From an uncultured bacterium (GTDB lineage Bacteria; Poribacteria; WGA-4E; PCPOR2b): a DNA stretch of 46,797 nt. The position numbers were made by a program, and so were the translations under genes. Each line of letters starts with the position of its first letter. Position 1 is the first letter of the stretch. The stretch spans positions 1-46,797 of the forward strand of contig CAZOAL010000060.1 in NCBI GenBank assembly GCA_964577695.1. Direction: 5' to 3'. The notes under the pieces were generated by a model, which saw only the letters and a list, made by a program, of their open reading frames with translations, searched no databases and was not told the origin of the DNA. Of this stretch, positions 2,044 to 22,743 are shown one piece after another.

Positions 2044-2116
2044 AATAGACCTAAAATCGGCACGATAGCGAATGATTCGCCACTCAGATTTCCATAAAAC
2101 GGAGGGCGCGTGTTCT

Positions 2117-3538
2117 ATGAACAAAACCAAGTTTCCTTCTCTCCCAATTTTACTGGTTGATGACGAAGAGCAGGCTTTGATTAGTAGTCGCTTGCTTTTA
2201 AACTCGGAGGGGATTAACAATGTGGTCCAGTGTCAAGACAGCCGTGATGTCATGGCGACCATAGCCCAACAGGACTTCGCCGTCATCGTACTTGATATGT
2301 TGATGCCGAACCTATCCGGTTGGCAACTGCTGCCAATGATTCTCCGGGATTATCCTCAGATTCCGGTAATCATCGTCACGGCCGTTAACGAGGTTGAAAC
2401 AGCCGTTGGCTGTATCAAGCAAGGGGCATTCCATTATCTCGTTAAACCCACAGCGGAGGCCAATTTGGTTCCGAGCATCCGGCGTGCGCTCGAATTCAGC
2501 ACATTGCGGGATGAAAATGCCTTGCTCAAACAGTCGCTGTTTTCCGACGAGCTTAAGCAGCCCGAAGCGTTCGCCGAGATTATCACCCAAGACCGAACGA
2601 TGCACACCATTTTTCAATACGTCGAAGCGATTGCCGAAACTGTGCTTCCTGTGTTGATTACCGGCGAAACCGGTGTTGGCAAGGAATTGATTGCCACATC
2701 CATCCACCAACGGAGTGGTCGAACTGGCGCGTTCGTTCCGGTCAATGTCGCCGGGCTAGATGATCCGTTCTTTTCAGATACACTTTTTGGGCATCAAAAA
2801 GGGGCGTTTACTGGCGCGGATCGACCCCGCAGAGGCTTAATTGAACAAGCAAAAGGCGGCACGCTCTTTCTCGATGAAATCGGCGATCTGCGCCCTGAAT
2901 CACAGGTCAAGCTGTTGCGACTTTTGCAGGAAGGGGTGTATTATCCGCTGGGCGCAGATGTCCCAAAAGCCACCGATGCCCGAATTGTCGTTGCCACCAA
3001 CCGGGAATTGGAGGCCATCTTGGGAACGGGGCAGTTTCGTAAAGACCTCTATTATCGACTTCAAGCCCATCAGATTCACCTGCCGCCGCTCCGCGAGCGA
3101 CGGGATGATATTCCGTTACTGGTCGATCACTTCCTCGAAAAGGGGGCGAACACACTGGGCAAGAAAAAGCCAACACCACCCAGAGAACTTTTCACACTGC
3201 TTTCTGCCTATCATTTCCCCGGTAACCTCCGGGAGCTTGAAGGCATGATCGTTGATGCCGTTGGCAGACACAAGAAAGGCACCCTTTCTATGGAATCCTT
3301 CCGTGAGAAAATCGGTCACACACCACCGACTCACCCACCAGTTCAGCCCCGTCAATTAGAGGCCACGGAAGATTCGTCGGTTCTATTCAAGGAGAGACTA
3401 CCCACTTTGAAAGAAGTCGAGCAACGGTTAATCGCGGAAGCGCTGAAGCGTGCCGATGGCAACCAGACTATTGCCGCCCAACTTGTCGGATTGTCGAGAA
3501 GGGCATTGGCCGGTCGGTTGGCAAGAATCCATGAATAA
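2117..3538 (+). CDS. Sigma-54-dependent response regulator / transcriptional activator (REC + AAA+ sigma-54 interaction domain + Fis-type HTH), NtrC family
   Basis: Receiver segment LLVDDEEQ...DMLMP. Walker A GETGVGKE. Sigma-54 contact motif GAFTGA. C-terminal [19 protein letters not shown]. The ATG at 2117 follows GGAGGG, whereas the ORF track starts at 2072. Confidence 0.9.
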
Positions 3539-5834: not shown

Positions 5835-5924
5835 CCCAAGTTTCTAACTTGGCACCTCGTCCCCAACCAAGATAGAATCTTGGGCTACAGTTAGATTGCG
5901 AAACAGTTCGTCAACACGCCCTAG
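5796..5924. repeat. Palindromic MITE-like element, family A (outer arms CTAGGGCGTGTTGACGAAC, inner stem GTAGCCCAAG/CTTGGGCTAC, two small internal hairpins)
   Basis: Nested inverted repeats read directly. Copies or partial copies lie at 8932-9001 and 46749-46797. Confidence 0.75.
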
Positions 5925-5949
5925 TACCCTGTCAATCGTCATTTGATGG

Positions 5950-6000
5950 GTAGTGACGACTTCAGTCGTTCATCGAAAAAGCGACTGAAGTCGCCACTAC
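5950..6000. repeat. 19-bp inverted-repeat hairpin (GTAGTGACGACTTCAGTCG ... CGACTGAAGTCGCCACTAC)
   Basis: Read directly. It is adjacent to the family-A element. Confidence 0.5.
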
Positions 6001-9608: not shown

Positions 9609-10091
9609 ATGTCATGGCTTTCGATTTGCCTCATCGGTTTGGGTGTCTTACTGTTATTTATTGAAATTGTTTTACTACCGGGCTTTGGCGCGGCAGGCGT
9701 GCCGGGTGTTGTGCTCATCGTGATTGCTATCGGGCTTGTGTGGTCAAAGTCTGGATTAGGGAATGCCTTGATTTATGCTGGCCTTATGATGGCTGTAACG
9801 ATTCCGCTTGCCATTTTAGCCCTCTGGCTGGCCCCGCGGACGAAGTTTGGGAAATCTCTCATTCTGAGTACCACTGAAAGCAGCACTGATGGGTTTCAGG
9901 CTCCCCCACCAGATCTGGCCACCCTGGTTGGCAAATCCGGTCAATCAATTACGCCCTTACGCCCCGCCGGCGCTGCTTTAATCAACGGTCGGCGAGTGGA
10001 TGTTGTCACGCGGGGAGAATTTATTGAAGCCGAAACGGAAGTTGAAGTGATTTTCGTCGAAGGGAATCGTGTCGTCGTTCGTAATCTGTAA
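9609..10091 (+). CDS. nfeD: NfeD-family membrane protein (N-terminal TM helices, C-terminal OB-fold), partner of SPFH/flotillin proteins
   Basis: Hydrophobic N-terminus. C-terminus GKSGQSITPLRPAGAALINGRRVDVVTRGEFIEAETEVEVIFVEGNRVVV. Sits immediately upstream of floA. Confidence 0.75.
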   Translation: MSWLSICLIGLGVLLLFIEIVLLPGFGAAGVPGVVLIVIAIGLVWSKSGLGNALIYAGLMMAVTIPLAILALWLAPRTKFGKSLILSTTESSTDGFQAPPPDLATLVGKSGQSITPLRPAGAALINGRRVDVVTRGEFIEAETEVEVIFVEGNRVVVRNL

Positions 10092-10333
10092 AAGGAAACG
10101 GGATTAGGAAATTCGGCATGTTTCAAATTTCTCTGAAAAATACTTGACACTTTGGAAGGATGGAAGGTTTCGACAGGCTCAACCCAAGGAATGGAAGAAA
10201 AGGAAAGGAGCGCCCATTTTCTTCCATTCCTTCCCCTCCTTCCTTTCTTCCAACGGCAAATTGTGTAAAGAGGTGTCTGAAACATGCCCGGATTTGCTCA
10301 TTTTAATTCCTCGTCTTTAGAAGGAGATTTAAC

Positions 10334-11362
10334 ATGCCCTCAGAAATCCCAGTAAACCTGATCGCAATCATCGCGATTGCGGTACTGATTTTTGTATTGT
10401 TCCTCTTTTGGCTGGTCCCCGTTGGACTTTGGATCTCTGCCCTTGCTGCTGGCGTGCGCGTCCGTATTTTTGCGGATCTGGTAGGGATGCGACTGCGTCG
10501 CGTCAACCCCTCTGTAATTGTAAACGCACAGATTAGCGCGACCAAAGCAGGGCTGAAGTTGAAAATGTCCGACCTGGAAACTCACTACCTTGCGCGTGGG
10601 AATATTAGGCGAGTCGTCAATGCCTTGATTGTCGCCGACAAAGCGAAGATCGATCTCGACTTTCGGCAAGCAACCGCGATTGATCTGGCTGGTCGAGATG
10701 TGTTTGAAGCCGTACAGGTGAGCGTCAATCCTCGGGTAATCACGACGCCTCGAATTAAGGCGGTCTCCATCGATGGGGTTCAACTCATCGCGACGGTCCG
10801 CATCACCGTCAGAGCCAATATTAACCGGCTCGTCGGCGGTGCCGGCGAAGAGACGATTATCGCGCGTGTTGGCGAAGGGATTGTCAGTGCAATTGGTGGC
10901 TCGGAAACTTACGAGGATGTCCTCGAAAACCCCGACATCATCTCCAAAACAGTGTTAGATCGAGGGCTTGATGCGGGAACAGCTTATGAGATTCTTTCGA
11001 TCGATATTGCTGACGTCAACGTTGACAAGAACATCGGTGCCCAACTACAAGCGGCACAGGCTGAAGCCGATCTGGTCGTTGCACAAGCAAAAGCTGAAGA
11101 GCGGCGCGCGATGGCGGTCGCACGGAAGCAGGAGATGACAGCGAAAGTGCAAGAGATGCGTGCGAAAGTTGTTGAGGCTGAAGCCACTGTTCCTCGCGCC
11201 GTTGCGGATGCTTTCCGAGCCGGAAATCTAGGAGCTCGAACCGCTTCAGAATCTGATGATGGATTGACACTCTCGTTAAGGTCTTTACCAATCATCAGAG
11301 TTCAAACCGTTTCAGAATCTGATGGTGAATCAGAGAATGACGATTCCGAGCCGGAAATCTAG
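10334..11362 (+). CDS. floA: Flotillin-like protein FloA (SPFH domain, UPF0365/YqfA family), paralog 1 with a divergent acidic C-terminus
   Basis: [29 protein letters not shown]...[21 protein letters not shown]...[16 protein letters not shown]...[33 protein letters not shown] are hallmark FloA blocks. Confidence 0.9.
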
Positions 11363-11384
11363 GCACTCAAACCTAACCTTGATT

Positions 11385-11455
11385 ATTGAAGATTGTCGAT
11401 TGAAGATTGAAGATTTTCAGTCGTTTTCAATCTTCAATTTTCAATTCTCAATTCT
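11385..11455. repeat. Intergenic hairpin/tandem TTCAAT-GAAGATT repeats between the two floA paralogs
   Basis: attgaagattg ... caatcttcaat inverted repeat plus TTCAAT(T) x4, read directly. Confidence 0.45.
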
Positions 11456-11473
11456 TAACGGAGGTTTTATCAA

Positions 11474-12505
11474 ATGAATCCTACAATAATTCCTGCAATT
11501 TTAGCGATTGCTATTCTTGTTTTTTTCATCATGCTAACTTCATTTGTCCCCGTTGGTTTATGGATCACCGCTCGTGCGGCGGGCGTAAAAGTCCGAATTT
11601 TCGCCGATCTCGTCGGGATGCGTTTGCGTCGTGTCCCCCCGAAGGCCATCGTGGAACCACAAATTGCCGCAACAAAAGCCGGACTCAACCTCACGCTCGA
11701 CAATCTTGAAGCGCACTACCTTGCTGGTGGAAACGTGGGGACTGTCGTTTTTGCTCTCATCGCTGCCGATAAAGCGAACATTAAGCTGGACTTCGCTCGT
11801 GCCGCCGCCATCGATCTCGCTGGACGAGACGTGTTGAAGGCAGTACAGATGAGCGTCAATCCCCAGATTATTGATGTCCCTCCCAAGGAGGAGGCGAGAG
11901 CCGGCGGTATTGCTGCCGTTGCGCGTGATGGCATCCAGCTCCTTGTGAAAGCAAGAGTGACCGTAAGAGCCAATATCGATCGACTGGTTGGTGGCGCGGG
12001 AGAAGCGACAGTCATCGCCAGAGTCGGTCAAGGTATTATCACAACGATTGGCTCTGCGGCAAGCCATAAAGAAGTTTTGGAAAATCCGGCGCGAATCTCA
12101 AAGACGGTGCTCGACAAAGGCCTGGCAGCCGGCACTGCCTTCGAGATCTTGTCCATCGATATTGCTGACATCGACATCGGCGAAAACGTCGGGGCAAAGC
12201 TGCAAACAGATCAGGCGCAGGCCGAGCTGAAAATCGCTCGTGCCAAAGCCGAAGAAAGACGGGCCATGGCGCAGGCGCAGGAAGAAGAGATGAAAGCCCT
12301 TGTCGAAGAAATGACCATCAATCTCATTGAGGCCGAAAAGGAGATCCCGCTGGGTATTGCGGATGCGCTCGCGTCGGGCAGGATGAGCGTAATGGATTAT
12401 TACAATCTACGCAATGTCATCGCGGATACGGAAATGCGCCAATCTATTGCCAAACCCGCTGGTGCTGACACAACGCGCTCTACCGATTCATTAGGGGTTT
12501 TATAA
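11474..12505 (+). CDS. floA: Flotillin-like protein FloA, paralog 2 (full-length, conserved C-terminus)
   Basis: Same FloA blocks as paralog 1. Retains the C-terminal [24 protein letters not shown]. Confidence 0.9.
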
Positions 12506-14180: not shown

Positions 14181-16115
14181 ATGTACCACCCATTCTTTCA
14201 CCCATTGCTTCACCAGATTCTTTCGTTGCTCAAACGCAGGCGACTGCCCCTTGGGGGGCTGATGCGCCTTGCGGTCTGCTGTGTTATCCTGTGTGTGACC
14301 CAGGGGGTGGCCCACGCCCAGTTCACGCTCACGCAGACGTTCCTGAACCCGATGCCGGTAGTCAATGACTGGTTCGGCAACTCGGTCGCGGTCGATGGCA
14401 ACTGGATCCTCGTCGGGGCACCCTTAGACGGCACGACGGGGGCCGCCTACCTGTTTGACGCCACCACGGGGGCGCTGGTGCACACCTTCACCGATCCGAC
14501 ACCGGCCAGCAATGGCTACTTCGGCGGCTCGGTCGCGGTCGATGGCAACTGGGTCCTCGTCGGAGCAGAGCGCGACAACAGGAGGGTACCTGACGCGGGG
14601 GCCGCCTACCTGTTTGACGCCACCACGGGGGCGCTGTTGCACACCTTCACCAACCCGACACCAGCTCCGTATGACTCCTTCGGCTACTCGGTCTCGGTCG
14701 ATGGTGACCATGTCCTCGTCGGGGCAAACGGGGACAACACGGGGGCACCTGAGGCGGGGGCCGCTTACCTGTTTGACGCCACCACGGGGGCGCTGGTGCA
14801 CACCTTCACCAACCCAACACCGGCCGCTAGTGACAACTTCAGTATCTCGGTCTCGGTCGATGGTGATCATGTCCTCGTCGGGGCAGACCTCGACGACACG
14901 GGGGCACCTAACGCAGGGGCAGCGTACCTCTTCGACGCCACAACAGGGGTGCTGTTGCACACCTTCACCAACCCAACACCGGCCCAGGATGACGTATTCG
15001 GCTTCTCGGTCTCGGTCGATGGCGACCGTGTCCTCGTCGGGGCAGACCTCGACGACACGGGGGCACCTGACGCGGGGGTCGCCTACTTCTTTGACGCCAC
15101 CACGGGGGCGCTGGTGCACACCTTCACCAACCCGACATCGGCAGGCGGTGACCAGTTCGGCTACTCGGTCTCGGTCGATGGCGACCATGTCCTCGTCGGG
15201 GCAGACCTCGACGACACGGGGGCACCTGACGCGGGGGCAGTCTACCTCTTTGACGCCACCACGGGGGCGCTGGTGCACACCTTCATCAACCCGACACTGG
15301 CCGGCTTTGACGCCTTCGGCTACTCGGTCTCGGTCGATGGCGACCATGTCCTCGTCGGGGCACCCTTTGACGACACGGGAGCACCAGCCGCGGGGGCAGC
15401 CTACCTCTTTGGACCATCCCCCTTCACACTCGATTTGCGCTTGAACAAAGAACCGCCCGTTTATCAGAAAGGGGATCGCATGCTTGTGACGGCGCACCTC
15501 TTCAACCCCGGTCCGACGCAGACGGTACGGTATCTGCAGCAACTGTTCCTGCCAAATGGGAGCGAGTTTCTGCGTACCAGAATCGACCAAACGGTGTCCT
15601 TGACTTCGGGGGAGGATGTGGTAGACACGACCTTCAATCGGCACTTGCCCGCTATCCCCGCCGGGGACTACAGGTGGCGGGCGCGATTGCTGGACCCGGA
15701 GACTTCTCAGGTGTGGGTAGAAGACACCGCATCGTGGGAGTTTGTGGGGACAGGGGGCAGCCGGGCGAACCTGGCGCAACTGGTGGGCGGCTTAGACTTG
15801 TCCGCCTCCCCAGCGCGTCCGGTGGCAACGCAGTTACGCGCCCCTTATCCCAATCCCTTCAACCCGGAGACCTGGATACCGTATCACCTGGCGGAACGGG
15901 CGCACGTCCGAATCTTCATTTACGATCTGACCGGCAAGTTGGTCAGAACCCTTGAGCTCGGGGAAAGAGCGCCTGGGTCTTATCTTGACCCCAGCCGGGC
16001 GGCGCACTGGGACGGTCGTAATGACGCCGGCGAGCCAGTCGCCAGCGGGGTCTATTTCGTCCAGTTCCACGCCGGGGACTTCCGTGCCAGCCGCAAGATG
16101 ATACTGGAGAAGTAA
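14181..16115 (+). CDS. Secreted FG-GAP repeat (integrin-alpha-like beta-propeller, ~8 blades) protein with a C-terminal T9SS/FlgD-Ig-like sorting domain
   Basis: Eight ~54-aa repeats FGYSVSVDGDHVLVGADLDDTGAPDAGAAYLFDATTGALVHTFTNPTPA. Signal peptide MRLAVCCVILCVTQGVAHA. C-terminus PYPNPFNPETWIPYHL...IYDLTGKLVRTL...GVYFVQFHAGDFRASRKMILEK. Confidence 0.85.
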   Translation: MYHPFFHPLLHQILSLLKRRRLPLGGLMRLAVCCVILCVTQGVAHAQFTLTQTFLNPMPVVNDWFGNSVAVDGNWILVGAPLDGTTGAAYLFDATTGALVHTFTDPTPASNGYFGGSVAVDGNWVLVGAERDNRRVPDAGAAYLFDATTGALLHTFTNPTPAPYDSFGYSVSVDGDHVLVGANGDNTGAPEAGAAYLFDATTGALVHTFTNPTPAASDNFSISVSVDGDHVLVGADLDDTGAPNAGAAYLFDATTGVLLHTFTNPTPAQDDVFGFSVSVDGDRVLVGADLDDTGAPDAGVAYFFDATTGALVHTFTNPTSAGGDQFGYSVSVDGDHVLVGADLDDTGAPDAGAVYLFDATTGALVHTFINPTLAGFDAFGYSVSVDGDHVLVGAPFDDTGAPAAGAAYLFGPSPFTLDLRLNKEPPVYQKGDRMLVTAHLFNPGPTQTVRYLQQLFLPNGSEFLRTRIDQTVSLTSGEDVVDTTFNRHLPAIPAGDYRWRARLLDPETSQVWVEDTASWEFVGTGGSRANLAQLVGGLDLSASPARPVATQLRAPYPNPFNPETWIPYHLAERAHVRIFIYDLTGKLVRTLELGERAPGSYLDPSRAAHWDGRNDAGEPVASGVYFVQFHAGDFRASRKMILEK

Positions 16116-16310: not shown

Positions 16311-16811
16311 ATGTATTCACCGGATTTGCTTGGGTCCTTTGAAAAAATTTCCAGCGAACGGTACAGTTTCTTGTTAAAACTTGCACAAGAAGGGCTGTTT
16401 CCTGCCTCAGAACTGGAAGGCATTGTCGAAGCGGTGACGATCCAACGTTACAAACTCGCGTTCAGCTTTCATGAATCGGCACAAGCAATACCGCTCAATT
16501 CAGAGATTAACGCTCGCAACGTGATTTCGCGCAATTATTACGCGATGTTCCAGGCGGCACGGACTGTCATCTTCCATGTTCACCGTGAAGATCTGGAGGG
16601 TCATGAAGCGGTGGCTACGAAAATTGGTCCCATATTGGGAACAAATTTTCAGAACTCGCTCAATAAGTGGCGCAATTATCGCAATAAGGCAGATTACTCT
16701 CCCTTTCCACCAATCGATCTGTTTAAGGAAGCAAACCAATCACATCAGGAAGTTTTAGTGTTTATAGCCGAATGTAAAACCCTTTTACAAAAGAGAGGTG
16801 TTCCCTTATGA
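16311..16811 (+). CDS. HEPN-like domain protein (candidate; Rx5H motif REDLEGH and C-terminal ...Y..ADYSP resembling the HEPN PF05168 end)
   Basis: RNYYAMFQAARTVIFHVHREDLEGHEAV ... LNKWRNYRNKADYSP. Assignment is by motif only. Confidence 0.4.
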   Translation: MYSPDLLGSFEKISSERYSFLLKLAQEGLFPASELEGIVEAVTIQRYKLAFSFHESAQAIPLNSEINARNVISRNYYAMFQAARTVIFHVHREDLEGHEAVATKIGPILGTNFQNSLNKWRNYRNKADYSPFPPIDLFKEANQSHQEVLVFIAECKTLLQKRGVPL

Positions 16812-17113
16812 GATTCTCTGACATCCCGATCCGTGGTTTCCGAATCGAGGTGGATCACTGGGCACTTGGGCAGTTTGTTCTCGAACGCTTCCAGGAAAAA
16901 TTTGGCCTGGAACAGATCCTTAACGTAGACTCCCAAAAGTATCCGGGGGAATACAATGTTGTCGTTCTCGTCAAGGAGGAAACCCCAGAGATTCGGGATT
17001 TTTCCCTTGCATTGATAGATGAAATCCAGGAAAAAGGGGTCAACGCGATTATCATAGCACTCCCCGCAGATCAATATGGACGTTCAAAGCCTGGGGGTAA
17101 GTTGTCGCCGTGA
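16808..17113 (+). CDS. Hypothetical protein translationally coupled (ATGA overlap) to the HEPN-like gene
   Basis: Start ATG overlaps the upstream TGA stop (cttATGAgattc). No recognised motif. Confidence 0.4.
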   Translation: MRFSDIPIRGFRIEVDHWALGQFVLERFQEKFGLEQILNVDSQKYPGEYNVVVLVKEETPEIRDFSLALIDEIQEKGVNAIIIALPADQYGRSKPGGKLSP

Positions 17114-17293: not shown

Positions 17294-18730
17294 GTGCAGG
17301 TTTCCTGCTCTCATTCTTCCGATATTCATACGATGCAGTTTCAGTTTCAAATCACTTCAGTCATTGTCCATATTTTGCTGTGCCTCGTTTCTCCCTCCGC
17401 TTTCGGAGCGATTGTCATCAATGAGGTGATGGCAAATCCCCTCAACGAAGACACGGGTGAGTTCATTGAGTTGTTCAATACCGGTACAGAACAGATCGAT
17501 GTCCTCAACTGGCAGTTCACCGATGGTGATGCCACGGATATCATCCAACCCTTTCGAGACAGTGCGACAGCTATCCCCCCCAACGGTTATGCCCTGATTC
17601 TGGATGCGGAGTATGCCGATGAGTACGATCTGCCGCCGGGGACGATTTTGCTGACAACGAAGAATACGACCCTTGGCGATGGCTTGCAGACCAATGATCC
17701 AATCACGTTGTTCGACGAAAGCGGGACGAAGATTATCGGTACCTATTCTCCCCCTTTCGCTGCCAAAAACGGGATTTCGGTTGAGCGTGTCGATGTGGCT
17801 GTCGGAGATGTCCTTGAGAATTGGAAAGCGAGCCTCGCTCCGTCCGGTTCTACGCCGGGGCAGGTGAACAGCGCCACGGATACGGGTATCACTCCCCCTC
17901 CAACGGAGAAACCCGATACCGATTCAAAGGTTGAGCCACCACCGATTATCCGCATCCTTATCAACGAGATTATGCACAGCCCCGATACGACAGCCGGACA
18001 AACCGAGTGGATTGAGCTATTCAACCCGAATCCGCAGCCAGTGAAGCTTGGCAAGTGGCGCGTCGAAGATGCTTCAGGGAGGTCTGGGGAAATTCCTGAA
18101 GACACACAAATTGCCGGAGGGGGCTTTCTCGTCCTCACAAAAAGCAAATCGGATTTTCAAACGCAGTATCCGGTTGGGATTGAGGTTGTTGAAATCAACC
18201 TCCCCTCACTCAATAACGATAAGGATACGCTGACCCTCTATGATAACGCCGATCGACAGATCGACCTCGTGAGTTATGTTGGTTCCGGTTCAATCCGCGG
18301 CAGGTCTCTCGAACGGGTTCAAACTTCCCTGCCCTCCAATCAAGCGGGAAACTGGCTCCTGTCTATAGCGCTCGTCGGCGCAACGCCGGGAAAGATAAAC
18401 AGCCGCAGCCAAAACGTCGCGGGAAAACCCAAGCTAACGATCAACCCAACCCCCTTCAATCCACAGGTATCAGAGACGACCATCCGCTACGAATCGCCGA
18501 CGAACGCCTTGATTACCCTGCAAATCTTTGATTCCGCCGGACGCCCCGTCCGCATCCTTCTCGATCAGCGCGAAGCCGGCGGGGTACAATCGGTTAAATG
18601 GGATGGTCGAGATGAATACGGGGAGCGCGTGCCCGTTGGGGTGTACATCTGCCAACTCATCGTCTCTGGCAACTCGAAGCAGTCAGCGACGCGAGTCGCT
18701 AAAACGGTTGTCGTTGCGGAAAAACTTTAA
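17294..18730 (+). CDS. Secreted protein with two lamin-tail domains (LTD) and a C-terminal T9SS/FlgD-Ig-like sorting domain
   Basis: LTD blocks VINEVMANPLNEDTGEFIELFNTG...WQFTDGD and INEIMHSPDTTAGQTEWIELFNPN...WRVEDASG. C-terminal tail NPTPFNPQVSETTIRY...LQIFDSAGRPV...VKWDGRDEYGERVPVGVYICQL. The signal peptide probably starts at the internal Met near 17333. Confidence 0.8.
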   Translation: MQVSCSHSSDIHTMQFQFQITSVIVHILLCLVSPSAFGAIVINEVMANPLNEDTGEFIELFNTGTEQIDVLNWQFTDGDATDIIQPFRDSATAIPPNGYALILDAEYADEYDLPPGTILLTTKNTTLGDGLQTNDPITLFDESGTKIIGTYSPPFAAKNGISVERVDVAVGDVLENWKASLAPSGSTPGQVNSATDTGITPPPTEKPDTDSKVEPPPIIRILINEIMHSPDTTAGQTEWIELFNPNPQPVKLGKWRVEDASGRSGEIPEDTQIAGGGFLVLTKSKSDFQTQYPVGIEVVEINLPSLNNDKDTLTLYDNADRQIDLVSYVGSGSIRGRSLERVQTSLPSNQAGNWLLSIALVGATPGKINSRSQNVAGKPKLTINPTPFNPQVSETTIRYESPTNALITLQIFDSAGRPVRILLDQREAGGVQSVKWDGRDEYGERVPVGVYICQLIVSGNSKQSATRVAKTVVVAEKL

Positions 18731-18748
18731 TATTGCAGGTGATGATTC

Positions 18749-19978
18749 ATGCTCACTCGAATTCAAGTCAAAGGCTATAAGAGTTTTCGTTCTGTAGAAA
18801 TCAATCTCAAGCCATTCACGACGATTGTCGGGCCGAACAACGCCGGCAAAAGCAATCTCTTTGATCTGTTAGGTTTAATTTCCAGGGTTGCTCAAAAGCC
18901 GCTTGAGCAGGCATTTGCCGCCCACCGAGGGGATGCAATCGAATCCTTTTATTTGGCAAAACCAGATCAAAATCCCTGCATCGAAGTGACGTTAGATCTC
19001 GATCTCCGGGGTATGCGCCACCCTTACGATTCATCGAAAGAAGTTCCGTTTCCTTATGTCCGATACCAGCTTGCAATTGAATTTGATCCGACCCACGTTC
19101 TGCTCACGATAAAAAATGAAAAATTGGAGGACATCAATCCCGAAAAACGGAAACGGCGCAAAAATCCGTTTCTTGAGATAGCCCAGGAAAATGGTGAACA
19201 GTTTCTTAAAGTTGTACCAGAGCGGGGAGGAAAGCCTCGACAGTTTCCACTGGACAGCCAACGTTCCGTCATGACAGTTATTGACGATGTAGAATTTTAC
19301 CCAACACTGTGTGCGGTTCAACAGTCATTCGCATCGTGGCGTTTTTTTCATTTCGACCCACAGGCGTTGAGGGAGCCAAGCCCCTTGATGAATATCCACC
19401 AAATCGAGCCAAACGGCAGGGGATTGTCGGGGTTCCTTGATACCTTGAGCCGAACCGATGAAAAGCGATTCCGCGCAATCGAATGGGCGATCTGCACAGC
19501 CATTCCTGAAGTGGAACAGATTGATCTGGTTGAAACAGGCGATCGGAGGCGATTAATTGTCCTCCGACAAAGAGAGAACAGAAACCACACGGCGCGAGTC
19601 ATCTCCGATGGAACACTCCGATTTCTGGCTCTTGCTGCGCTTGCCTATGCCGCTGACCCCCCGGCGCTTGTCTGTCTGGAGGAGCCTGAAAATGGTGTCC
19701 ATCCCTGGCGGTTAGATTTCATTGTGAAACTCTTACGCGGCATTGCGCGAGAGCGTGAAAACGAGCCACGCGCGCAAGTTTTGGTCAATTCGCATTCGCC
19801 CTATTTAGTGGATTTGTTATATGCAGAAGAGATGGTCATCGCTGAGATGAAAAACGGCGAGACGATTTTCAGAAATGTCGATCTTTTCTCGCGCCCTGCG
19901 CTTCGAGAAATGTTGGAATCCGGAGAAATCACACTCGGTGAAGCCTGGTATCAAGGAGATTTGCATGGCTATCCTTAA
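18749..19978 (+). CDS. ABC-type/SMC-like ATPase of the AAA_21/AAA_15 family (RecF/SbcC-like predicted ATPase)
   Basis: Walker A GPNNAGKSN. ABC signature-like ISDGTLRFLALAAL. Walker B LVCLEEPE. H-loop VNSHSP. Confidence 0.85.
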   Translation: MLTRIQVKGYKSFRSVEINLKPFTTIVGPNNAGKSNLFDLLGLISRVAQKPLEQAFAAHRGDAIESFYLAKPDQNPCIEVTLDLDLRGMRHPYDSSKEVPFPYVRYQLAIEFDPTHVLLTIKNEKLEDINPEKRKRRKNPFLEIAQENGEQFLKVVPERGGKPRQFPLDSQRSVMTVIDDVEFYPTLCAVQQSFASWRFFHFDPQALREPSPLMNIHQIEPNGRGLSGFLDTLSRTDEKRFRAIEWAICTAIPEVEQIDLVETGDRRRLIVLRQRENRNHTARVISDGTLRFLALAALAYAADPPALVCLEEPENGVHPWRLDFIVKLLRGIARERENEPRAQVLVNSHSPYLVDLLYAEEMVIAEMKNGETIFRNVDLFSRPALREMLESGEITLGEAWYQGDLHGYP

Positions 19979-20576
19979 AATTGCTTATGCCCTGGAAGGC
20001 CCAAGCGATCACCGGATTGTGCCAATTCTCATCGAACGATTGATTGAGGACTACAGCAGCACCGCCCCAATTGAGGTCATGAGATCCGTTCGTCGCACAC
20101 GGAGGCGTGGGCACGGTTTTGTTAAAGAGCTTCCCCAGTTGGTTCGCAGTTTGGAATCAGACGAGACCGATATTTTGGTTGCAATTGTTGATGCCGATGC
20201 ACCGAAACTGATGAATGAGCGACTCAATTTATTGCGAGAGACGATCAAAGAGCTCCAGCCATCTCCGATCTGTTTTGTAATTGGTGTGGCGGTTAGATCA
20301 TTGGAAGCGTGGCTGCTTGCTGACGAGAATGCGATTCGATTGGCGGCAGACGTTGCTTATGTTCCGCAACAACCTGCTCCTGAAGGAATCGATGCTCCTA
20401 AAACATACCTTGATAAACTCATTAGAAGTTTAACTGATGGACGAGAGTTTTCGATAGGCAGACTCACAAATGAGATTGCATCTGCCCTTGATTTGCAGCG
20501 TCTCAAAGTCCGATGCCCCCACTTTGAACGAATTGTTCAGGAATTGAACCGGTGTTTACAAAGGTTTATCGCCTAA
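19965..20576 (+). CDS. Small TOPRIM-like protein (DUF4276-like) overlapping the ATPase gene by 14 nt
   Basis: N-terminal ALEGPSD (TOPRIM Glu motif) and ILVAIVDADAP (DxD motif). Start ATG at 19965 in the frame of track ORF 19875-20576. Confidence 0.6.
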   Translation: MAILKIAYALEGPSDHRIVPILIERLIEDYSSTAPIEVMRSVRRTRRRGHGFVKELPQLVRSLESDETDILVAIVDADAPKLMNERLNLLRETIKELQPSPICFVIGVAVRSLEAWLLADENAIRLAADVAYVPQQPAPEGIDAPKTYLDKLIRSLTDGREFSIGRLTNEIASALDLQRLKVRCPHFERIVQELNRCLQRFIA

Positions 20577-20629
20577 TAAAAAGGAATTCAATAACAATCA
20601 AGACCTGAACAACAATCCGGAGGATTAGA

Positions 20630-20929
20630 ATGAATCAAAGTCTTTTGTATCATGGATTAATCAGCAAAGAGGAAGACCGTTACTGTGCGCTCTGCGTCGA
20701 ATTTAACATTGCGACTGAAGGCAAGACGCTCGAAGAAGCCAAAATGAACTTGAAAGAAGCTATTGAAGGATACCTGGAAGTGGCTATGGAGTTGGAGAAT
20801 CAAGAAGGATTGATTCCGCGACATGCACCGGAATCTCTTGTAACAGAGTATGAAATGTCATTCCGGCAGGCCTTAACCCAGCAGACCCCAACTGAACTTT
20901 ACGTTTTCGGGGAAATCGTATATGCCTAA
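20630..20929 (+). CDS. hicB: HicB-family antitoxin (type II TA)
   Basis: YCALCVEFNIATEGKTLEEAKMNLKEAIEGYLE is the typical HicB N-terminal RNase-H-like block. Overlaps hicA by 8 nt. Confidence 0.8.
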   Translation: MNQSLLYHGLISKEEDRYCALCVEFNIATEGKTLEEAKMNLKEAIEGYLEVAMELENQEGLIPRHAPESLVTEYEMSFRQALTQQTPTELYVFGEIVYA

Positions 20930-21137
20930 ACGTCTTTCAACACGCCAAATTGAGCGTATCCTCCATCGCCATGGTTTTCAGTTTGTACGTCAAACGGGAA
21001 GTCATAGGCACTACAAAGGAATGGTTGAAGGGCGCACTCGACTTGTCACGCTGATTGCCAATCAGAAAGATTATCATCCAAAGACGCTAAAAAGCATTAT
21101 TGCTCAATCTGGTCTGCCTGAAGAGATTTTTGATTAA
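20922..21137 (+). CDS. hicA: HicA-family toxin (mRNA interferase, type II TA)
   Basis: HRHGFQFVRQTGSHRHYK...LVTLIANQKDYHPKTLKSIIAQSGL with the hallmark GSH motif. 71 aa. Confidence 0.85.
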   Translation: MPKRLSTRQIERILHRHGFQFVRQTGSHRHYKGMVEGRTRLVTLIANQKDYHPKTLKSIIAQSGLPEEIFD

Positions 21138-21168
21138 ATTCATACTTGACAATTAAAGAGATAAATCT

Positions 21169-22743
21169 ATGGAAAGTGCAACGTTTGCCGCAATTGATGT
21201 GGGTTCTAACGCGATGCGGCTGAAAATTGTTGAAGTGCGTGCGGACGGTGCCGTTGAACCGATTTATCAACACCGTGCCCCTGTCCGTCTCGGGCACGAA
21301 GTCTTCTTGACAGGTTTTCTGACCGAAGAGGCTATTCAGAAAGCAATCGAAGCCTTTGGAGAATTTAGTGAGGCTATTGAGAAGTCGAAAGTTCATGCGA
21401 TTCGCGCGATCGCGACGAGCGCGACACGGGAAGCTATCAACGGTGATCATTTTGTGGAGCGTATTTACAACAGCTCCGGCATTCAATTGGAACGCATTTC
21501 CGGGGTTGAGGAGGCACATCTGGTTCAACTCGCGGTGACACGCAAGATCAATCTCCGCAATCAGGTCGCCCTTGTCATTGACATCGGGGGCGGGAGCGTT
21601 GAGTTCGATGTCATCGACCCCGGCCCTTCAACTGTGTACTCCAACAGCCTGCGGCTGGGAACCGTGCGGTTGCATGAAACCTTTCTCCGAACGGATACAA
21701 TTTCTGACCTGCAGCTCTTATTGCTCAAGGCTTACATGGAGCAGTTGCTTGAAACCACACTGGAGTCCATCAACGCACACGAAATTGACCTGGTGCTCGG
21801 CACAGGCGGAAATGTCGAAGAGCTCGGGAGGCAGATTGGGACGGATGCAGAAAAGGAAGGCTTCCCGGAAGATGTCCGCTTTATTCCGCTCCGCGAGCTC
21901 CAGCGGTTCGTCAAGGAGATTTCCAAACTCAATGTGAAAGACCGCATGGATGGCTACGGCATGCACCCCGATCGGGCGGATGTCATTTTACCTGCGAGTC
22001 TCGTGCTCGCCCAAGTGGTGAGCAACGTTGCCGGCGCGAGAGGTCTGTATGCAGCGAACGTTGGACTCAAGGATGGCGTACTTGTGGAAATGATAGATCG
22101 CTTCCGAAACTCTTGGGACACCACTTCGGAGGAAGCGGAGATTATCAAAGCCGCAACCGCGCTTGGACACAAATACCATTTTCATTTGGGGCATGCGGAA
22201 CAGGTCCGTTATTTGGCAGAATTGCTGTTTGATCAACTGCGACCCATTCATCAGTTGTCCACTGAGTCTCGACTGCTGTTGCGTGCCGCTGCGACACTTC
22301 ACGAAATTGGCGGGTACGTCAACCCCTCCGACCATCACAAACACTCCTACTACCTGATTCGACATTCTGAGGTTGTAGGACTCAAGCCCAGTCAGCTTGA
22401 ACTGATTGCCAATATCGCCCGGTATCATCGCGGTGAATTTCCCAATGAACAGAAGCGCGATCATTTTCGCTCCCTCTCGTCCGCTGAAAAGAAACAGGTA
22501 ACGAAGCTCGCAGCCATTTTGCGAGTCGCGGATGCGTTAGACCATCAGCATAAATCGGTTGTCGAGGACCTGAGAGTCAAGATTCTCAATGACGCCATTG
22601 AGATTGACATTCGCTCCCTTGACGCCTGCCTCCTTGAGAGATGGCATCTTCAGGAAAAAGGTCAGTTGTTTACACGAACCTTTGGACGTTCGATTCGTCT
22701 GCTGGTGAATGGGAGGACAGGGGAAAATGTTGACTCAATTTAA
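21169..22743 (+). CDS. Ppx/GppA-family phosphatase (exopolyphosphatase / pppGpp phosphohydrolase-like) with C-terminal HD domain
   Basis: N-terminus AAIDVGSNAMRLKIVEV (ASKHA fold). HD region HLGHAEQV...LHEIGGYVNPSDHHKHSYYLI. Confidence 0.85.
   Translation: MESATFAAIDVGSNAMRLKIVEVRADGAVEPIYQHRAPVRLGHEVFLTGFLTEEAIQKAIEAFGEFSEAIEKSKVHAIRAIATSATREAINGDHFVERIYNSSGIQLERISGVEEAHLVQLAVTRKINLRNQVALVIDIGGGSVEFDVIDPGPSTVYSNSLRLGTVRLHETFLRTDTISDLQLLLLKAYMEQLLETTLESINAHEIDLVLGTGGNVEELGRQIGTDAEKEGFPEDVRFIPLRELQRFVKEISKLNVKDRMDGYGMHPDRADVILPASLVLAQVVSNVAGARGLYAANVGLKDGVLVEMIDRFRNSWDTTSEEAEIIKAATALGHKYHFHLGHAEQVRYLAELLFDQLRPIHQLSTESRLLLRAAATLHEIGGYVNPSDHHKHSYYLIRHSEVVGLKPSQLELIANIARYHRGEFPNEQKRDHFRSLSSAEKKQVTKLAAILRVADALDHQHKSVVEDLRVKILNDAIEIDIRSLDACLLERWHLQEKGQLFTRTFGRSIRLLVNGRTGENVDSI

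Follow-up and report, generated by a model that had tools for sequence, protein, structure and literature searches.

What are the two overlapping genes at 18,749 to 20,576 of this contig from an uncultured Poribacteria-type bacterium, and do they form a defence module that can work alone? The window, by which we mean the whole stretch of DNA analysed (46,797 nucleotides), holds them on the forward strand. A first-pass annotation had read them as a split ABC-type ATPase with a TOPRIM-like partner, a candidate OLD/PARIS/AbiL-like module. The core of that reading held, and the two genes match both components of HEC-01. The coding features are as follows.

18749..19978, forward strand: ABC-type (SMC/Rad50-head-like) ATPase, 409 aa (Pfam AAA_21/AAA_15; PADLOC HEC-01A)
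19965..20576, forward strand: DUF4276 protein, 203 aa (PADLOC HEC-01B; predicted TOPRIM-like)
18737..18742, forward strand: Shine-Dalgarno-like AGGTGA, 6 nt 5′ of the ATPase start (sequence reading)
19953..19958, forward strand: Shine-Dalgarno AAGGAG within the ATPase gene, 6 nt 5′ of the DUF4276 start (sequence reading)
19965..19978, forward strand: 14-nt overlap of the two coding sequences (ATGGCTATCCTTAA)

The ATPase and the DUF4276 protein are encoded by two ORFs in different frames, each with its own start and stop codons. The ORF listing gave the second ORF as 19875..20576 (+), which is 233 aa when counted from the first ATG. We dropped this longer start (ATG 19875) and preferred ATG 19965, because AAGGAG stands 6 nt 5′ of it, the equivalent methionine begins all homologues, the JGI annotation of the identical contig has the same 203-aa gene, and the resulting 14-nt overlap recurs in relatives. 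The ORF listing and the start-site evidence agree with the 409-aa and 203-aa proteins, overlapping by 14 nt, of the first-pass annotation. The −14 overlap was also found in relatives L001, L003, L008, L009, L054, L056, L057 and L058, and was kept across the close clade. Together with the internal ribosome-binding site it implies that the two genes are probably translationally coupled. The pair may also be co-transcribed with the upstream LTD-domain gene, because that gene's stop (18730) lies only 18 nt before the ATPase start and neither a sigma-70-like promoter nor a terminator turned up from 18281 to 18749.

The larger protein carries the full set of ABC catalytic motifs.

18830..18856, forward strand: Walker A (P-loop) GPNNAGKSN, aa 28–36
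19601..19624, forward strand: ABC signature-like ISDGTLRF, aa 285–292
19667..19690, forward strand: Walker B and D-loop LVCLEEPE, aa 307–314, of the EEPE type, as in Thermus scotoductus OLD
19784..19801, forward strand: H-loop VNSHSP, aa 346–351

These motifs, already pointed out in the first-pass annotation, are conserved in 63 ATPase homologues. Across that set, Walker A residues G28, N30, G33, K34, S35 and N36 were invariant, as were S286, G288 and L290 of the signature (D287 and R291 were at least 90% conserved) and H349 and S350 of the H-loop; E311 and E312 were nearly invariant. Pfam AAA_21 matched the ATPase at 3.3e-30, and the top PDB sequence match was TsOLD (7.5e-7). Alignment with 6p74 paired 'vcleepengvhp' of the ATPase with 'viieepemylhp'. 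The AF2 secondary structure showed an SMC/Rad50-like head with a beta-rich insert and without a long coiled coil.

A check proposed in the first-pass annotation, whether the small protein belongs to DUF4276, gave a clear answer. The profile search placed it in Pfam DUF4276 (PF14103) at 4.8e-15, with 56.7 bits against a cutoff of 30.2, over profile positions 2–191 of 192. Like the AAA_21 match of the ATPase, this lies well outside what chance would give. The nearest homologue, at 91% identity, was a 'DUF4276 family protein [Candidatus Poribacteria bacterium]'.

19989..20009, forward strand: TOPRIM motif 1 ALEGPSD, aa 9–15, with E11 directly after beta1 and D15 four residues on
20184..20201, forward strand: TOPRIM DxD motif IVDADA, aa 74–79, at the end of strand beta3
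20301..20327, forward strand: family signature LEAWLLADE, aa 113–121, in the first helix after beta4

ALEGPSD and IVDADA, both picked out in the first-pass annotation, proved to be conserved in 115 DUF4276 proteins. Among these, G12, D15, D76, E114 and W116 were invariant, E11 and D78 were at least 90% conserved, and E11 stood within an EGxxD context. Judged by these two alignments, the motifs of the ATPase and of its partner are family-conserved and not chance matches.

PADLOC models assigned both genes to one family. For the ATPase, the HEC-01A model PDLC04184 scored 6.2e-80 (267 bits) and seven more HEC-01A models were better than 1e-35; the runners-up were PDC-M07A (1e-34) and AriA (5e-30). 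The small protein matched the HEC-01B model PDLC04210 at 4e-18 over residues 1–200, and HEC-01B models made up 18 of its 21 listed matches. Genes A and B lie side by side on the + strand with the 14-nt overlap described above. On the strength of these profile matches, we concluded that the window pair is of HEC-01 type (ABC ATPase plus DUF4276), an already catalogued candidate anti-phage system.

HEC-01 is PADLOC's 'Hma-embedded candidate 01' (Payne et al., bioRxiv 10.1101/2024.01.29.577857). The window pair shares its gene order, with the ABC ATPase gene (HEC-01A) first and the gene for the small DUF4276/TOPRIM-like protein (HEC-01B) second, and the same structural reading of the ATPase, in which an insert extends the beta sheet of an ABC head. 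It differs in setting. The published form is Hma-embedded, whereas the window copy lies inside neither Hma nor another modification system, and its nearest relatives occur in type III restriction-modification (R-M) systems, a host system not analysed in 10.1101/2024.01.29.577857. The representative assayed by the discoverers of HEC-01 gave no protection against any phage used (10.1101/2024.01.29.577857), and in E. coli one HEC-01 representative conferred protection from one or more of the phages T4, T5 and T7. The two assays disagree, one being negative and one positive, and both were done on representatives outside the window pair's clade. The DUF4276 branch comprises about 3,600 clusters at 50% identity. 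With the family catalogued, already assayed and numbering thousands of members, the first-pass annotation overrated the novelty of the pair.

We examined the relatives of the pair for linkage and setting. The ATPase ORF lay directly upstream and on the same strand in all loci holding both genes (53/53), and these linked loci span many phyla, including Chloroflexota, Armatimonadota, Bacteroidota and Deinococcota. In five of the nine close-clade lineages examined, the pair sat between N6_N4_Mtase and ResIII/RE_endonuc genes, that is, between type III mod and res, and in the embedded relatives the Mod and ATPase genes abut or overlap. We took a Pfam census of the genes immediately next to the pair at 45 loci (76 neighbours), in which three Mod and three Res genes recurred, the rest being housekeeping. 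Because no other neighbour recurred in the census, we rejected a three-gene system. The relatives between mod and res suggest that the family can act as a back-up to restriction; the window copy would work alone.

The same embedding raises the alternative that the window pair is an orphaned R-M accessory, a cassette from a type III system (Mod-ATPase-DUF4276-Res) that is now a leftover unable to act by itself or the partner of an R-M system elsewhere in the genome. A route to such a state exists: just upstream of the solo pair in L001 we found a 46-aa C-terminal remnant of Mod, and solo copies can therefore arise by R-M decay. The nesting of five of the nine close-clade lineages also speaks for this alternative. 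So does the MADS system of Pseudomonas aeruginosa, whose AAA_21-type Mad3 is a homologue of the window ATPase (NCBIfam MAD3 1.3e-48; PADLOC mad3 2.4e-22) and whose Mad4 is a DUF4276 protein like the small partner, because both act within a methylation-based system. MADS has eight genes, of which mad6-8 are mandatory, and deletions of mad3 and mad4 reduce its defence. We rejected membership of the window pair in MADS, because the ATPase (166.2 bits) fell below the NCBIfam MAD3 equivalog cutoff of 420 and the mandatory genes were not found in the locus; mad6, mad7, mad8 and a methyltransferase were not among the window ORFs scanned.

Several results made an orphaned accessory unlikely. Flanking the window pair, tblastn found no remnant of Mod or Res. 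The window ATPase falls outside the R-M-embedded subclade, with 47–52% identity compared to 63–90% inside that subclade, and the three Mod and three Res genes are a small share of the 76 immediate neighbours. Furthermore, the catalytic residues are all intact. When compared with a sister Poribacteria genome, the DUF4276 gene had a dN/dS of 0.19, which matches that of the neighbouring ppx gene, and the ATPase C-terminus had 0 nonsynonymous versus 11 synonymous changes. The solo arrangement beside ppx is also kept in a second Poribacteria genome. In this uncultured Poribacteria-type lineage the copy is intact and evolves under purifying selection.

A second alternative concerns the small protein, which could be no nuclease but an adaptor of Rossmann-like build that binds a ligand or nucleotide and either controls the ATPase or is controlled by it, with any effector activity elsewhere. 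The AF2 model (pLDDT 93) has the order b1-a1-b2-a2-b3-a3-b4-a4; E11 follows the strand at residues 2–10, and D76-A-D78 lies at the end of strand 70–77. The predicted layout is a TOPRIM-like two-metal nuclease core (aa 1–120) followed by a C-terminal helical region (aa 121–203). The TOPRIM residues of BpOLD (B. pseudomallei OLD) are E400/E404, D455/D457 and E508 (PMC6755086); E11/D15 parallel the first pair and D76/D78 the second. By position, E114 would be the parallel of BpOLD E508 and of RNase M5 E110, and is a candidate metal-B ligand. In the model, the acidic residues E11, D15, D76-x-D78 and E114 fall at the two-metal positions of OLD and RNase M5.

The predicted succession of strands and helices is compatible with the TOPRIM assignment of the first-pass annotation (in TOPRIM, a four-stranded parallel sheet of order 2-1-3-4 between helices), and the conserved Glu and DxD stand where TOPRIM domains have them. 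Profile and structure searches spoke less clearly. The Pfam profiles Toprim, OLD-like_TOPRIM, DUF4435 and RloB did not match the window's DUF4276 protein. Foldseek of its model against the PDB gave nothing at E ≤ 1e-3, and the top matches were generic Rossmann-like folds that are uninformative for TOPRIM. An hhalign comparison of the DUF4276 profile with the single P2 Old sequence found nothing (probability 0.1), a result we did not count against TOPRIM because a single-sequence target is probably too weak. Searching PDB sequences with the DUF4276 profile built from 115 sequences returned only spurious matches to designed proteins; thus, there is no solved structure among DUF4276 relatives.

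An adaptor is nonetheless distinctly unlikely. The invariant or near-invariant residues are acidic and stand at the C-terminal ends of strands beta1, beta3 and beta4, which is a hallmark of the TOPRIM metal site and not of MID or PBP ligand sites. The longest structural alignments were to PH0156, OLD and AriB (145–159 residues), compared to about 115 for MID. Weak cross-matches among the 115 family members went to DUF4435 (three, best 0.0057), OLD-like_TOPRIM (two, 0.12) and RloB (five, 0.13). Two independent published analyses assign TOPRIM: HEC-01 is described as an ABC ATPase with a TOPRIM protein, and DUF4276/Mad4 and RloB are described together as new Toprim members.

Comparison with known ATPase and TOPRIM systems placed the pair near several of them and inside none, as the first-pass annotation had anticipated in noting that the small partner does not obviously match the OLD, PARIS or AbiL/RloAB families; by Pfam and PADLOC it is not DUF4435 (AriB), RloB or OLD-TOPRIM. 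The PARIS effector AriB is a DUF4435 protein of ~35 kDa (305 aa in chain 8v46_D), whereas the window partner is a DUF4276 protein of 203 aa. AriA has a coiled coil and helical inserts, and the window ATPase has a beta-rich insert instead. OLD-family nucleases and Gabija GajA (classes 1–4) resemble the window pair in combining an EEPE-type Walker B ATPase with a TOPRIM domain that has the E...E/D...DxD...E two-metal constellation. However, in OLD (classes 1/2) and GajA the two are fused in one polypeptide, in contrast to the two overlapping genes here. PADLOC matches to Old (2e-14) and GajA (7e-14) covered short ATPase stretches only, and no Gabija partner helicase (GajB/UvrD-like) was found near the window pair. 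AbiL/RloAB is likewise a split ATPase with a small TOPRIM-like partner (PADLOC AbiLi match of the ATPase, 1e-22), and both tend to nest in R-M operons. Its partner RloB (PF13707) is unmatched by the window's small protein, and it often lies inside type I R-M, whereas the relatives of the window pair lie in type III.

The genes flanking the pair encode LTD/FlgD_ig, HicBA, Ppx-GppA and PhyH proteins. The first-pass annotation had proposed a 'defence islet' that included HicBA and a HEPN-like cassette. HicBA was borne out (HicA at 1.9e-13; the adjacent HicB-like ORF matched weakly, at 3e-4, below cutoff), whereas the HEPN assignment was weak, its sole match being PADLOC HEPN_IX at E=0.021. The islet itself fared poorly: hicBA is an independent 579-bp indel missing from the sister Poribacteria genome (no direct repeats were evident by eye at its junctions), a secreted-protein gene lies between the pair and the HEPN-like cassette, and the remaining ORFs scanned in the window were housekeeping genes, secreted-protein genes or without a match. 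No R-M system, integrase or other PADLOC-recognised system was found next to the pair in the window. PADLOC on ten further window ORFs gave only a generic sigma-54 AAA match, to an NtrC-type response regulator. On the housekeeping surroundings and the ten-ORF scan, we rejected a defence island in the window.

The mobile hicBA toxin-antitoxin (TA) cassette next door, the compact overlapping two-gene build of the pair and the Pfam label of AAA_21 ('putative AbiEii toxin, Type IV TA system') would suit a selfish addiction module, in which the ATPase would neutralise a nuclease toxin and the main outcome would be self-stabilising rather than anti-phage. The boundary between TA and abortive-infection systems is blurred. 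We nevertheless regard such a module as very improbable, given that the pair shows no signs of mobility: its G+C resembles that of its surroundings, flanking repeats and an integrase are absent, and its position is conserved in the sister genome. With the small protein as query, tblastn matched none of 72,556 plasmids, although diverged copies could escape it. Antitoxins are typically far smaller and less conserved than this ATPase. A housekeeping role in DNA repair or recombination, with a RecF-RecR- or SbcCD-like build (an SMC-like ATPase head and a TOPRIM or nuclease partner), can be largely dismissed, since the neighbourhood differs from genome to genome with no recurrent repair partner, the family recurs within R-M operons, PADLOC defence-candidate models fit much more closely than the RecF or SMC models of NCBIfam, MADS defence drops on deletion of mad3 and mad4, and the AF2 secondary structure shows no coiled-coil arm on the ATPase.

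We thus favour, at a probability of roughly 0.6, a self-contained HEC-01-type module whose most likely role is abortive infection against phages or mobile elements. In such a module the ATPase would dimerise or oligomerise around ATP and serve as sensor and regulator, keeping the DUF4276 nuclease inactive as AriA does AriB in PARIS. An infection cue sensed by the ATPase would release or activate the nuclease, which may cut DNA (as OLD and Gabija do) or tRNA/RNA (as AriB and RNase M5 do), and this cleavage would stop phage propagation.

A more specific proposal is tentative, and we hold it to be possible rather than probable: the clade would be a PrrC-like 'restriction guard' that evolved between type III mod and res and repeatedly escaped as a two-gene Abi system, with the DUF4276 protein a two-metal TOPRIM ribonuclease acting on tRNA or RNA. 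The Poribacteria (sponge-symbiont-type) genome of the window would be a case of escape under this proposal, which likens the ribonuclease to AriB and RNase M5 and not to a DNase. In the literature surveyed, we found no report of type III embedding or of a substrate for HEC-01/DUF4276.

For the window, the outcome is that two 'hypothetical' genes can be labelled as a HEC-01-type candidate defence pair. The pairing of ABC ATPases with TOPRIM proteins (OLD, Gabija, PARIS, RloAB) is a design that bacterial immunity uses again and again, and a major one. The tight association of the relatives with type III R-M provides a concrete hypothesis, that of a back-up to restriction, which is testable in cultivable relatives.

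The pair comprises two overlapping genes on the forward strand, as follows.

ATPase and DUF4276 genes of the window
18749-19978, +, ATPase ORF, 409 aa (ORF scan)
19875-20576, +, small-protein ORF from its first ATG, 233 aa (ORF scan)
19953-19958, +, AAGGAG, 6 nt before ATG 19965
19965-20576, +, DUF4276 gene from the preferred start, ATG 19965, 203 aa
19965-19978, +, coding overlap of the two genes, 14 nt

The 233-aa start (ATG 19875) was rejected. We favored ATG 19965 because of the AAGGAG just upstream, because all homologues of the small protein start at an equivalent Met-x-I-L-K, because the JGI gene call on a metagenome contig 99.96% identical to the window (L055) gives the same 203-aa protein, and because the 14-nt overlap recurs in relatives. 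This bore out the two overlapping ORFs, 203-aa product and 14-nt overlap of the first-pass annotation, and implies translational coupling. Each motif it had quoted was found in place and is conserved across the family. ATPase residues K34, S286, G288 and H349 were invariant and E311/E312 nearly invariant among 63 homologues; in the small protein, G12, D15, D76, E114 and W116 were invariant and E11 and D78 at least 90% conserved (115 homologues). The predicted catalytic residue sets are intact in both window proteins.

Profile searches placed the ATPase in Pfam AAA_21 (3.3e-30) and AAA_15 (9.6e-19). The small protein matched DUF4276, one of the families originally named for checking, over its full length (56.7 bits, cutoff 30.2). 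In PADLOC-DB the pair corresponded to the candidate system HEC-01 in both parts, the ATPase matching HEC-01A (6.2e-80) and the small protein HEC-01B (4e-18). Other matches of the ATPase trailed far behind HEC-01A: AriA (5e-30), AbiLi (1e-22), mad3 (2e-22), Old and GajA. Against the NCBIfam MAD3 model of the methylation-associated defence system (MADS), the ATPase scored 166 bits, well under the equivalog cutoff of 420. The earlier reading of an OLD/PARIS/AbiL-like module was thus essentially right, and we put the probability that the pair belongs to the HEC-01 family (AAA_21 + DUF4276) at about 0.9. It is a typical member of this already catalogued candidate family, which forms roughly 3,600 clusters when grouped at 50% identity.

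The AAA_21 + DUF4276 pairing is already known, because it is described in the HEC-01, MADS/Menshen and PARIS publications. The HEC-01 authors (10.1101/2024.01.29.577857) reported an ABC ATPase paired with a TOPRIM protein whose metal-binding site resembles that of Burkholderia pseudomallei OLD (BpOLD); the representative they assayed conferred no protection. A later study reported protection of E. coli B by one HEC-01 representative, effective against at least one phage of the set T4, T5 and T7. A comparative Menshen study counted both DUF4276 and RloB as newly recognized Toprim proteins, and equated DUF4276 with Mad4 of MADS, in which mad3 and mad4 deletions reduce defence. DUF4276 also appears in the PARIS paper, in its list of partners for AAA_15/21 defence ATPases.

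The ATPase ORF lay directly upstream, on the same strand, in 53 loci with both genes from many phyla, including 47 of 48 loci in a scan of species-representative genomes. At the junction the two genes typically overlapped by 14, 4 or 1 nt or stood a few nt apart. Among 76 immediate neighbours typed with Pfam, N6_N4_Mtase and ResIII alone recurred (3 each), and no conserved third partner emerged. ATPases of the closest clade were 44–52% identical to that of the window, and 63–90% inside the main subclade. Five of its lineages (L003/L004, L005, L009, L056, L057) showed the type III restriction-modification (R-M) order Mod-ATPase-DUF4276-Res, with Mod (N6_N4_Mtase) abutting the ATPase start and ResIII + RE_endonuc on the Res side.

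Pair loci nested in type III R-M genes (locus coordinates)
L003, 4037-10562
L005, 3956-10432
L009, 1234-7822
L056, 3040-9500
L057, 2801-9455

The Mod frame of L005 is broken into two ORFs. Four lineages of the clade are solo (L001, L058, L059, and the window with its sister Candidatus Poribacteria contig, L054). Just upstream of the L001 pair is a 46-aa Mod C-terminal remnant (5845-5982, 48% identity), which suggests a pair left behind by a decayed R-M system; solo copies can therefore arise through R-M decay. An orphaned R-M accessory is the likeliest of the alternatives. In the window itself, a search that included remnants found no R-M genes, MADS genes or Mod/Res remnants, and we consider this explanation unlikely.

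The AlphaFold2 model of the small protein (alignment of 115 sequences; pLDDT 93.2, pTM 0.90) contained b1 2-10, a1 15-31, b2 36-40, a2 50-65, b3 70-77, a3 80-96 and b4 103-110, followed by a helical C-terminal region. In the model, conserved acidic residues sit at C-terminal strand ends (E11/D15 after b1; D76-x-D78 ending b3), and E114 lies in the first helix following b4. The two-metal site of BpOLD comprises E400, E404 (four residues on), D455, D457 and E508; E508 lies in the first helix past the Toprim core. RNase M5 carries an equivalent set (PMC6755086). From order and position, we infer that the two sets match one-to-one. The TOPRIM-like character first proposed is therefore supported by predicted topology, catalytic pattern and family links, which agree, although the fold-search ranking is ambiguous. 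A non-catalytic Rossmann-like adaptor is quite unlikely, given the conserved acidic residues.

The nearest named relative is Candidatus Poribacteria. An LTD/FlgD_ig gene for a secreted protein ends 18 nt before the pair, the G+C of the pair is unremarkable, and hicBA and ppx follow.

The hicBA segment
20630-20929, HicB-like gene, inside the indel 20575-21153
20922-21137, HicA gene, inside the same indel

In the sister genome the DUF4276 gene is followed directly by ppx: 15 bp replace the window's 579 bp (93–95% nucleotide identity on both sides), and the gene is 8 codons longer, its end 4 nt short of ppx. Inspection of the indel showed no direct repeats on its flanks. HicBA is therefore an independent mobile cassette outside the ATPase/DUF4276 module. 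The adjacency to HicBA, cited for the proposed defence islet, was borne out, but the islet itself is weak; the remaining window genes are housekeeping. A TA-like addiction module would fit two overlapping genes beside hicBA; we regard it as very unlikely. The pair is under maintaining selection, because dN/dS against the sister genome was 0.19 for DUF4276 (ppx, 0.19) and the ATPase C-terminus had 0 nonsynonymous and 11 synonymous changes. Separately, dS against L054 was 0.235–0.248 for the pair (19742-20574), about twice that of adjacent ppx (0.128; 21154-22726), which could point to separate histories, for example through recombination, in a small sample.

Structural comparison of the window ATPase (value for each structure)
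SMC head, 23.2
Rad50, 21
Retron Ec83 ATPase, 19.6
PtuA, 19.4
AriA, 16.9
Retron Eco8 OLD, 16.2
RecF, 15.4
GajA, 15.0
TsOLD, 14.1

TsOLD, the top PDB sequence match, shares the N-terminal strand, P-loop and EEPE Walker B with the window ATPase. A RecF/RecR-like repair module is the least likely reading, as the ATPase fits PADLOC defence-candidate models much better than NCBIfam RecF or SMC models.

A second two-gene cassette had been labeled HEPN-like.

'HEPN-like' pair, 4-nt overlap
16311-16811, first gene
16808-17113, second gene

It is kept on L055, and neither protein had a significant Pfam or NCBIfam match. The label is unverified, because its sole support is a PADLOC HEPN_IX match of the first protein (E=0.021). 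ORF 2072-3538 matched PADLOC 'RtcR_PspF2--CARF_AAA_HTH' (1e-91); we rejected it as a CARF defence protein because its Pfam receiver, Sigma54_activat and HTH_8 domains mark an NtrC-type response regulator, a false defence lead. Gene 14181-16115 (FG-GAP_2 repeat/FlgD_ig, secretion-tail-like) has G+C of 0.61–0.63 against about 0.47–0.52 nearby, and tandem DNA repeats (78–85% identity, offsets in multiples of about 147 nt); its 451-aa antisense and 329-aa out-of-frame sense ORFs are probably repeat artefacts. At 9609-12505, NfeD and tandem FloA (flotillin-like) paralogues (10334-11362, 11474-12505) form an ordinary membrane-microdomain operon with floA duplicated. Between nfeD and floA lies a 56-nt sequence with TTGACA (10142-10197), single-copy in the window, with an inverted repeat of 14-16 bp (about 10188-10232) behind it. 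The 56-nt sequence recurs 98% identical in L054 (2461-2516), downstream of ppx, and could represent a small repeat element or a module acting as promoter or terminator.

We lean toward a defence role for the window pair. An ATPase dimer or oligomer would sense an infection cue and gate the predicted DUF4276 nuclease, whose cleavage of nucleic acid, DNA or RNA, would abort infection. PARIS and OLD/Gabija serve as models for such gating; in PARIS, AriA sequesters AriB until a trigger frees it to nick tRNA-Lys. Sequester-and-release details are transferred to this pair only tentatively. The DUF4276/ATPase family has links to both R-M and MADS, and its R-M-embedded relatives suggest a possible back-up role once restriction is inhibited, as with PrrC. 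The HEC-01 paper (10.1101/2024.01.29.577857) covers Hma, BREX, DISARM and type I R-M as host systems; type III is not among them. What is new here is confined to one modest element: the closest clade is embedded in type III R-M, with evidence that pairs have escaped to stand alone.
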